Source of the DNA: a virus
Taxonomy: Duplodnaviria > Heunggongvirae > Uroviricota > Caudoviricetes
Virus record (IMG/VR): IMGVR_UViG_2896595138_000010
Coordinates: 1 to 7,873 of that record
Reading direction: 5' to 3' (one strand)
DNA length: 7,873 nt
In this document: positions 5,538 through 5,862 of the stretch, one piece after another
Layout of the letters: every line of letters begins with the position of its first letter
How positions within the stretch are numbered: the first letter of the stretch is position 1
Position numbers and translations under genes: made by a program
The notes under the pieces: generated by a model
The model's database searches: none
What the model was told of the DNA's origin: nothing
Seen by the model: the letters and a program-made list of their open reading frames with translations, nothing else

Positions 5538-5551
5538 TTTTGACAAGATAG

Positions 5552-5573
5552 TTTTCCCCAAATGTGGGGAAAA
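5552..5573. repeat. perfect 9-bp inverted repeat with a 4-bp spacer (TTTTCCCCA-AATG-TGGGGAAAA); candidate operator or RNA hairpin
   Basis: Read directly; lies 15 bp after the stop of the upstream gene, next to an orphan TTGACA (5540-5545). Confidence 0.6.
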
Positions 5574-5615
5574 GCCCGAATGGCGCGGCTTACAGCAAGA
5601 TAAGGCCTACATAAT

Positions 5616-5645
5616 TTGACAACACCGCATTAACGGGGCTATATT
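5616..5645 (+). promoter_or_regulatory. candidate sigma70 promoter, TTGACA (5616-5621) - 18 bp - TATATT (5640-5645), with an AT-rich upstream element
   Basis: Consensus -35 and near-consensus -10 on the coding strand, about 215 bp upstream of the second ORF6N paralog. Confidence 0.4.
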
Positions 5646-5862
5646 CCGCTTCATGGTGCTCAAAACACCTTTGCGATAGCGGAAACCGCCCCGTCAGTTA
5701 TGCGGATTTTTTTATGTCTACGACATTGAGAATTCAATGGTCGGGCGTGCGGCTAATAAAACACCCGCAAGGGAAATATGCCCGCCGTCTATCGCCGGTT
5801 TTGAGCGCCCGACCACCCTCTCAAAAGGGGTGAATTCAAAATATGCGATAGGACATAAAACC

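Follow-up and report, generated by a model that had tools for sequence, protein, structure and literature searches.

An sRNA-Xcc1 RNA precedes an antirepressor-type gene

We analyzed the non-coding gap at positions 5538-5862 of a 7873-nt stretch of DNA (hereafter, the window) that corresponds to positions 1 to 7873 of IMG/VR virus record IMGVR_UViG_2896595138_000010. The gap separates two paralogous genes, copy 1 and copy 2. It is probably an autonomous, insulated control cassette for copy 2, similar to c4 of phages P1 and P7 and isrK of Gifsy-1, and contains a small RNA (sRNA) of the sRNA-Xcc1 family. Copy 2 (5863-6519, + strand), presumed to be the regulated gene of the cassette, is an antirepressor-type gene with Pfam matches to ORF6N (2.9e-20) and P22_AR_C (7.5e-10). 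Its start codon, ATG at 5863, agrees with the limits of the gap in a preliminary description of this DNA. The suggestion made there that copy 2 is controlled independently fits the presence of its own promoter and a long structured leader.

The sRNA-Xcc1-family RNA (Rfam RF02221) is located at 5739-5822 on the + strand. With 78.1 bits (E = 1.7e-13), the match exceeded the gathering score of 53 and covered model positions 1-87 of 87. A perfect 9-bp inverted repeat had been reported here (GGTCGGGCG at 5739-5747 and CGCCCGACC at 5806-5814); it is indeed present, but it represents the closing stem of sRNA-Xcc1, and the C4-like leader RNA to which it belongs had been missed. The closing stem encloses hairpin 1 with a GCAA tetraloop (5751-5782), hairpin 2 (5784-5799) with segment b' in its loop (CUAUCGC, 5789-5795), and the single-stranded junction segment a' (UUUUGAG, 5799-5805); it is followed by an ACC tail (5815-5817). 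The minimum free energy (MFE) of the RNA was -32.9 kcal/mol (z = -2.23).

Viral contigs and a single genome for each species were scanned with a pattern, which yielded approximately 160 distinct relatives of the cassette in total. Their RNAs were located using our own covariance model, which was built from four sequences and a hand-written structure; a plain MAFFT alignment of the eight first homologues had mis-registered the closing stem. In 83 distinct relatives, 95.3% of the cells in the closing stem and the two hairpins were paired, and compensatory changes were found at 20 of the 21 pairs. The covariation score was 0.637, compared to at most 0.08 for slid controls. The tail had the form N-C-C in 78 of 86 relatives. 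Homologous modules with approximately 80% identity were present in Shiga-toxin (Stx) phages and other lambdoid phages.

Flanking boxes covary with the RNA

Segments a' and b' are complementary to boxes on either side of the RNA. Upstream, box a1 (5659-5665) forms the loop of the hairpin GGUG-CUCAAAA-CACC (5655-5669), and positions 5655-5666 are complementary to a' plus its extension (5799-5810). Box b1 (GCGAUAG, 5673-5679) and the adjoining CGG (the feature spanning 5673-5682) are complementary to b', and the upstream complementarity as a whole spans 5655-5682 versus 5785-5810. Downstream, box a2 (5820-5826), likewise complementary to a', forms the loop of the hairpin ACCCU-CUCAAAA-GGGGU (5815-5831). 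Box b2 (GCGAUAG, 5845-5851) overlaps the Shine-Dalgarno sequence of copy 2 (AGGA, 5850-5853), which lies 9 nt before the ATG, the two together covering 5845-5853. All of these features are on the + strand. The window contains two copies of GCGATAG (5673 and 5845) and a single copy of its complement (5789). CTCAAAA was found at 5659 and 5820 and additionally at 5400, whereas 5799 is the sole position of TTTTGAG.

The box sequences differ in nearly every lineage, and the match between the RNA and its own boxes is maintained. A cognate match was defined as an exact complement of at least 7 nt, and non-cognate pairings served as the control. In eight modules, taken from six Stx phages and the window, six sets of boxes were found, and each time b' matched b1 and b2 and a' matched a1 and a2. 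Across 82 distinct viral instances, b' had a cognate match upstream in 70% and downstream in 56% (non-cognate, 6% and 4%), while the corresponding values for a' were 54% and 60% (8% and 11%). For 80 distinct genomic instances, the rates were 79-86% for a1/b1 (versus 6-7%) and 44-51% for a2/b2 (versus 3-4%). These instances came from Pseudomonas, Xanthomonas, Rhodanobacter, Neisseria, Haemophilus, Pasteurella, Azospirillum, Desulfovibrio, Acidobacteria and others. Taking b1 by itself, a cognate match of at least 7 nt was present in 70-86% of loci, compared to 6% for non-cognate pairings. In 65 of 72 relatives, b2 ended 7-11 nt before the predicted start codon. Modules residing together in one phage or genome used different b boxes (L001, L051, L095, L191 and L199). 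Covariation thus argues for pairing of a'/b' with a2/b2, and translational repression would be its outcome.

It is very improbable that the boxes are instead DNA operator sites for a protein, with direct repeats on both sides and an inverted copy between them. The repeats do exist at the DNA level, the downstream proteins are DNA-binding types, and the fraction of G-U wobble pairs beside the boxes (0.38-0.40 versus 0.33 expected) gives no clear sign of selection at the RNA level. However, the middle copies fall exactly in the loop and the junction of an RNA structure supported by covariation, the a boxes are displayed in RNA hairpin loops with varying stems, and b2 tracks the Shine-Dalgarno sequence. 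Moreover, the same protein families are accompanied by dozens of box variants, and vice versa.

Probable release of the RNA as a discrete species

The structured RNA is probably excised from a longer transcript, with its 5' end generated by RNase P, as the precedent of C4 and the combination of closing stem and ACC tail suggest. Position -1 was U in 48% of relatives and position +1 was G in 68%. At the 3' end of the sRNA, neither a terminator nor a U-tail is present in the window. The founding Xanthomonas RNA was detected as a discrete species of approximately 88-89 nt by Northern blot and rapid amplification of cDNA ends (RACE). In a lysogen, E. coli O157:H7 strain EDL933, the annotated sRNA-Xcc1 accounted for 40,293 reads (25,609 reads per kilobase per million mapped reads) at a ribosome coverage of 0.02, and the only listed non-coding RNAs that were more abundant were 6S, the signal recognition particle RNA and a C4 copy (PMC5331693). 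We located the EDL933 copy using the covariance model; the coordinates in PMC5331693 refer to an older assembly. The gene immediately after this copy is annotated as 'phage antirepressor Ant', and the copy has the same anatomy of promoter, b1, terminator, RNA and b2.

These data bear on two further explanations. According to the first, the sRNA is a trans-acting regulator of the Hfq type that targets unlinked host genes, and its place before copy 2 is incidental. Such a role would agree with the published annotation of the family as trans-acting and under HrpG/HrpX control, with the abundance of the free RNA in EDL933, and with the Xanthomonadaceae copies that have no a2/b2. We nevertheless consider it quite unlikely: the exposed segments covary with their own flanking boxes in most relatives, b2 coincides with the ribosome-binding site of the gene that follows, hypervariable boxes would be unexpected for a conserved host target, and the RNA has no terminator or U-tail of its own in the window.

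The second is a purely cis-acting switch, in which an unprocessed 5' untranslated region toggles a'/b' between a1/b1 (site free) and a2/b2 (site blocked) and no sRNA acts in trans. The MFE structure of the full leader (5650-5862) is dominated by a1/b1 paired with a'/b', and the isrK mRNA of Gifsy-1 has two such conformers with different translation. This explanation is unlikely in view of the discrete RNAs of approximately 88-89 nt that accumulate in Xanthomonas and the high abundance of the homologue in EDL933, and the conserved closing stem and N-C-C tail point to excision. In addition, c4 of P1 reportedly acts in trans, as Citron and Schuster are said to have described in 1990.

Candidate promoter, leader terminator and possible insulation

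A candidate sigma-70-type promoter precedes the leader at 5616-5645 (+ strand). It consists of a -35 element TTGACA (5616-5621), an 18-bp spacer and a -10 element TATATT (5640-5645). It had been recognized in the preliminary description and matches the consensus at 11 of 12 positions. It was the only promoter-like site in 4300-6900, where shuffles gave 2.9. Near-consensus hexamers, a spacer within the 16-19 bp range and a conserved position are all consistent with a sigma-70 promoter, and transcription is predicted to start at approximately 5652-5653. In most of 80 distinct relatives, a -35/-10 pair (mostly matching at least nine of 12 positions) was found 48-63 nt before the T-run of the leader. 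The pair keeps this distance even where the sequence and spacer of the relatives are unrelated, which argues for a real promoter.

The leader anatomy predicted from sequence, with a1 in a loop followed by b1 and a terminator, occupies 5655-5713 and is conserved in relatives. The local form of the putative terminator (5686-5713, + strand) is composed of CCGC (5686-5689) and GCGG (5702-5705) around a 12-nt loop containing CCCGUCAG, followed by an A and seven U residues (U7, 5707-5713). A competing small hairpin pairs GCGG at 5679-5682 with the same CCGC. The stem of the local terminator covaries (CCGCA/TGCGG, CCAAC/GTTGG, TCAC/GTGA and others) and was at least 4 bp long in 94% of relatives, compared to 33% of shuffles. 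The loop motif CCCGNNAG, which is similar to the 3' strand of the closing stem of the sRNA, was kept in 57 of 65 distinct relatives, with a covarying stem around it.

The same T-run also follows a much longer hairpin. An imperfect inverted repeat with arms at 5625-5638, i.e., within the promoter spacer, and at 5689-5705 had been described together with the T7 run at 5707-5713, and all three elements are where they had been placed. The 5' arm is included only in transcripts arriving from upstream (+ strand). RNA 5620-5715, which includes this arm, folded into one long hairpin ending just before U7, with an MFE of -36.6 kcal/mol (z = -5.16; none of 200 shuffles as good), and the duplex with the spacer arm had a z-score of -5.8. 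The transcript expected from the internal promoter (5652-5715) reached only -13.1 kcal/mol (z = -0.64), no better than shuffles. Folding of the long leader (5650-5862) gave a z-score of -3.38, in line with the structure claimed for it. By folding, the long form (5625-5705 plus U7) is a G+C-rich hairpin followed by a U-run, as would be expected of an intrinsic terminator, and the local form is a weak one. A simple terminator scan listed neither of the two, as their loops exceed 8 nt.

Complementarity between spacer and terminator recurred with different sequences and was significant in 25% of relatives, compared to 5% expected. Examples are POCJ13 (TCTGTCGG/CCGACAGA) and EDL933 (AGCTATCG/CGATAGCT); equivalent complementarity with other sequences was found in POCJ13, EDL933/PA28, L025, L013, L017 and others. 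At six loci (L010, L015, L055, L076, L094 and L097), an upstream hairpin plus T-run (e.g., CCCCTTGCATGTGCAGGGGTTTTGTTTTATATT) overlaps the module promoter, approximately 60-100 nt before the T-run of the leader. The T-run of this overlapping hairpin sits in the promoter spacer and is followed by the -10 element. Such a promoter-overlapping terminator is another way to stop incoming transcripts at the promoter. Together, the recurrent spacer complementarity and these terminators elsewhere make insulation from upstream transcripts plausible, as a feature that appears to be recurrent rather than universal.

It had been speculated that transcripts arriving from upstream terminate at the T-run, whereas those started at the internal promoter lack the 5' arm and read through. 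The first half of this idea is supported by the stability of the upstream-transcript hairpin and its recurrence. The second half is doubtful in its simple form: since the local terminator hairpin covaries, a weak terminator is expected to lie in the path of transcripts from the internal promoter as well, and by analogy with IsrK of Gifsy-1 they probably terminate in part at the T-run. It is unlikely that a promoter nested in a split terminator is all there is, with upstream transcripts stopping, internal ones reading through and the leader otherwise passive. The difference in folding with and without the 5' arm and the recurrence of the complementarity with different sequences would fit this explanation. 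Yet it leaves the Rfam RNA and the three-way covarying boxes unexplained, it does not account for a covarying local hairpin in promoter-derived transcripts, and the spacer arm is missing in approximately 75% of relatives.

The spacer between the T-run and the sRNA (5714-5738, + strand) includes a 5-bp stem, ATGTC-TAC-GACAT, at 5714-5726. The stem is present as reported, but its stability (-2.0 kcal/mol, z = -0.42) was no better than that of shuffles. A hairpin in this spacer was significant in 22% of relatives, and the length of the spacer varied from 19 to 77 nt.

Downstream genes and tandem modules

The gene after the RNA nearly always encodes antirepressor-type domains (70 viral and 69 genomic cases). 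The viral genes encoded KilA-N (14), AntA (12), Bro-N (11), Rha (10), ORF6N (9) and P22_AR_N (7), often together with P22_AR_C. The genomic genes encoded Bro-N (18), Rha (7) and others, including one SymE toxin.

In phages P13374 and phiSTEC1589, a module with isrK and C4 and a module with sRNA-Xcc1 are arranged in tandem, each before an antirepressor-type gene, and the two RNAs thus occupy the same functional slot. The true C4 copies in L003 and L006 scored 71-77 bits (C4 gathering score 45), and both the isrK and the c4-a1b1 models matched the leaders of these C4 modules. Tandem cassettes with different RNA locks were seen in Stx phages at L003 (1600-2706), L006 (594-1708) and L001 (1694-2319). 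They comprise either isrK plus C4 followed by sRNA-Xcc1, or two sRNA-Xcc1 modules with different a and b boxes. This arrangement suggests orthogonal control of several antirepressors in one phage.

Proposed mechanism

We propose the following sequence of events. The sigma-70 promoter at 5616-5645 would start the leader near 5652, and would do so constitutively, given its consensus match, its positional conservation and the expression in lysogens. The leader would present, in this order, a1 in a hairpin loop, b1, and the short-stemmed terminator with U7 (5686-5713). Some transcripts may end at U7, yielding an a1/b1 RNA of approximately 60 nt, while the rest would read through, as in the case of IsrK. 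The read-through RNA would give rise to the species at 5739-5822, probably cut out with the closing stem and the ACC tail guiding RNase P at the 5' end, and this species would accumulate. Its loop b' and junction a' would then pair with b2 and with a2 in its hairpin loop. As b2 overlaps the Shine-Dalgarno sequence of copy 2, translation of the antirepressor-type protein would be blocked in the lysogen.

The a1/b1 region may bind the same a'/b' segments, either in cis in the precursor or in trans as the short RNA, and could act as a decoy that relieves repression, as a site for feedback of the sRNA on termination, or as both. For transcripts from copy 1 or from further upstream, the arm at 5625-5638 would turn the weak terminator into a strong one and thereby insulate the cassette. 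On the other side, the putative terminator at 6525-6544 would close it.

Several observations weigh against this mechanism. The core pairings are short, at 7 nt each, and selection on the boxes at the level of RNA rather than DNA is argued from context, the wobble fraction given above being close to expectation. The nucleotide preferences at positions -1 and +1 (U 48%, G 68%) fit RNase P only loosely. In members from Xanthomonadaceae, including the founding sRNA, a1/b1 are present, and no a2/b2 were found within 90 nt downstream. The promoter-spacer arm is absent in approximately three quarters of relatives, and there is no icd-like upstream open reading frame (ORF) as in P1. A scan of the window with the Rfam models of C4 (RF01695), c4-a1b1 (RF03163) and isrK (RF01394), the first two of which belong to clan CL00128, yielded no match at E ≤ 1. 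Membership in these families was accordingly rejected for the window, and they are retained here as an analogy. Conversely, our own sRNA model did not match the true C4 copies in L003 and L006. With no model match in either direction, homology with C4 is unproven, and the likeness may be convergent.

A possible left boundary of the cassette

A perfect 9-bp palindrome with a 4-nt spacer, TTTTCCCCA-AATG-TGGGGAAAA, lies at 5552-5573 (+ strand), 15 nt past the stop codon of copy 1, exactly as first described. In PA28, F451 and WGPS6, the stem is kept and the loop is variable, always upstream of such modules. Since the palindrome has no T-run on the + strand, and the scan flagged a terminator-like element for the - strand alone, we rejected it as a + strand terminator and treat it as a conserved stem-loop. 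The TTGACA noted beside it is present at 5540-5545, but lacks a suitably spaced -10 element. Phage PA28 has the rest of the segment in common with the window and does not have this TTGACA. The orphan hexamer is therefore given no significance here.

The 83 bp from the palindrome to the -35 element (5546-5628) were 89-96% identical in many Stx phages that carry a different type of cassette downstream, PA28 and phi296 being examples. Judged by sequence comparison, this segment behaves like a left border, or a recombination joint, that the cassettes have in common.

Genomic setting

The window constitutes the left arm of an E. coli/Shigella-type lambdoid prophage. Insertion sequences of the IS3 family occupy approximately 1-3840, so the prophage arm upstream of the cassette is disrupted. 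At least two such elements are present in this region, apparently nested or adjacent. Their transposase ORFs are encoded by the - strand (1-240 and 1448-2116) and the + strand (2792-2977 and 2935-3840), and a programmed-frameshift pseudoknot of the ALIL type scored 111 bits at 2260-2375 on the - strand. The insertion sequences are followed by small ORFs and a DUF4222 gene on the + strand.

Copy 1, an ORF6N gene split by a frameshift (4756-4950 and 4977-5537, + strand), shares a common ORF6N core with copy 2 (76% identity across 51 aligned residues). No sRNA leader was found before copy 1; the 142-nt gap upstream of it (4614-4755) only has a terminator-like hairpin plus T-run at 4661-4682. The possibility that the leader of copy 2 is coding, as an ORF at 5737-6519 that extends copy 2 through the sRNA, was rejected, as the ATG and the frame are not kept in homologues: L001a, L001b and L002 have early stops in the corresponding frame.

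A terminator-like hairpin with an 8-bp stem, a UUCG loop and a T-run (6525-6552, + strand) begins 6 nt past the stop codon of copy 2, between this gene and xis (6604-6822), which is followed by int (6800-7873). If this terminator works, read-through of the PL type to xis and int would need antitermination.

Wider significance

Antirepressors decide prophage induction, including that of Shiga-toxin phages, and can induce neighboring prophages. If antirepressor cassettes are transcribed but locked in the way proposed, the lock would offer a direct means of influencing induction as well as cross-talk in polylysogens. Two 7-nt boxes, which are not the same in co-resident cassettes, would determine its specificity. 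As a design, the nesting of a promoter within a split terminator could also serve elsewhere as a directional insulator.

The sRNA-Xcc1 family ranges over Enterobacteria, Pseudomonas, Xanthomonas, Neisseria, Pasteurellaceae, Azospirillum, Desulfovibrio and Acidobacteria and their phages. It is conceivable, although we lean slightly against it, that the family as a whole represents a programmable RNA lock of wide distribution. The next gene, be it an antirepressor or a toxin such as SymE, may be silenced by a processed antisense RNA (a'/b'), and a co-transcribed a1/b1 decoy, released as a short RNA at a leaky terminator, may be the key. Hypervariable boxes may render cassettes orthogonal to their neighbors in polylysogens, and some lineages may have split the terminator around the promoter, stopping only foreign transcripts. 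If true, the problem solved by c4 in P1 would have a second solution that differs in structure, and cross-talk in prophage induction would have a general addressing system. Such a role would also assign a concrete function to a widespread orphan Rfam family that is among the most abundant small RNAs in lysogens of enterohemorrhagic E. coli, and whose members in plant pathogens are currently read as virulence or host-targeting sRNAs.

Comparison with known systems

The closest parallel to the cassette is the immI region of P1 and P7. In P1, c4 controls ant. The C4 precursor is a substrate of RNase P, and the processed RNA has a1/b1 and a2/b2 as its targets. Both immI and the window cassette comprise a promoter, an upstream copy of the target, an RNA of approximately 80 nt, a downstream copy of the target on a ribosome-binding site and an antirepressor gene. 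In the window, as in C4 systems, a' and b' have complements on the same strand to either side of the RNA, namely a1 and b1 upstream and a2 and b2 downstream, and the downstream target lies on the ribosome-binding site of the first ORF, which is of antirepressor type by its domains. In both systems, specificity is set by two short recognition boxes (a' and b') that vary between phages. The RNAs themselves are alike in having a closing stem, two hairpins, a junction and a CACCC-type tail, and they occupy the same genomic slot in Stx phages. The window RNA differs from C4 in its hairpin 1, with a conserved AAUACAA...GNRA...GAAUA pattern. Unlike in P1, the target in the window is the antirepressor-type gene's own Shine-Dalgarno sequence. 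Nor does the window show an evident C1 operator, and a conserved loop motif is found in the putative terminator that separates a1/b1 from the RNA.

The isrK-STnc1160/orf45-anrP system of Gifsy-1 in Salmonella would share further traits with the cassette. In Gifsy-1, part of the IsrK transcripts stop at a leaky terminator and part read through into STnc1160 and anrP, and over-expression of the short RNA activates anrP translation more than 100-fold in trans (PMC4825925). The proposed likeness lies in a leaky intrinsic terminator at which a short RNA would end, read-through to a processed stable RNA, an antirepressor gene that is transcribed but translationally silent, a leader complementary to the downstream RNA, and high expression in lysogens. 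There is no conserved counterpart to the coupled orf45, as only the window has the ATG at 5737 in frame and early stops occur in homologues, and activation by the short RNA is proposed for the window cassette rather than observed as in Gifsy-1.

A further parallel, drawn from published descriptions, is the immunity system of satellite phage P4, where CI RNA is processed from an untranslated leader and pairs with the seqA and seqC copies located up- and downstream of it (PMC4825925). Both systems would thus have a processed leader RNA that pairs with complementary copies on both of its sides. The outcome in P4 is premature transcription termination of replication genes, whereas the downstream copy in the window lies on a ribosome-binding site.

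The sRNA-Xcc1 family itself was first found in an integron cassette of Xanthomonas campestris, where the RNA is encoded upstream of, and in the same direction as, the potentially harmful gene symE; in APSE phages, it is located upstream of an ORF6N gene. In the literature, it is described as a trans-acting, virulence-linked sRNA under HrpG/HrpX control with predicted host or plant targets. Copies from Xanthomonadaceae differ from the window cassette in having no a2/b2 near the next gene (L132, L135, L137, L145, L159, L196 and others). Their tail reads (A/T)TCC rather than ACC or GCC, and many of them precede ORFs of approximately 88 or 235 aa without a Pfam match. A literature search, which was incomplete, so that an earlier description is possible, retrieved no paper linking sRNA-Xcc1 to c4-type control. 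The cassette thus combines a known RNA family with a proposed and apparently unpublished mechanism, a variant of C4-type antisense control.

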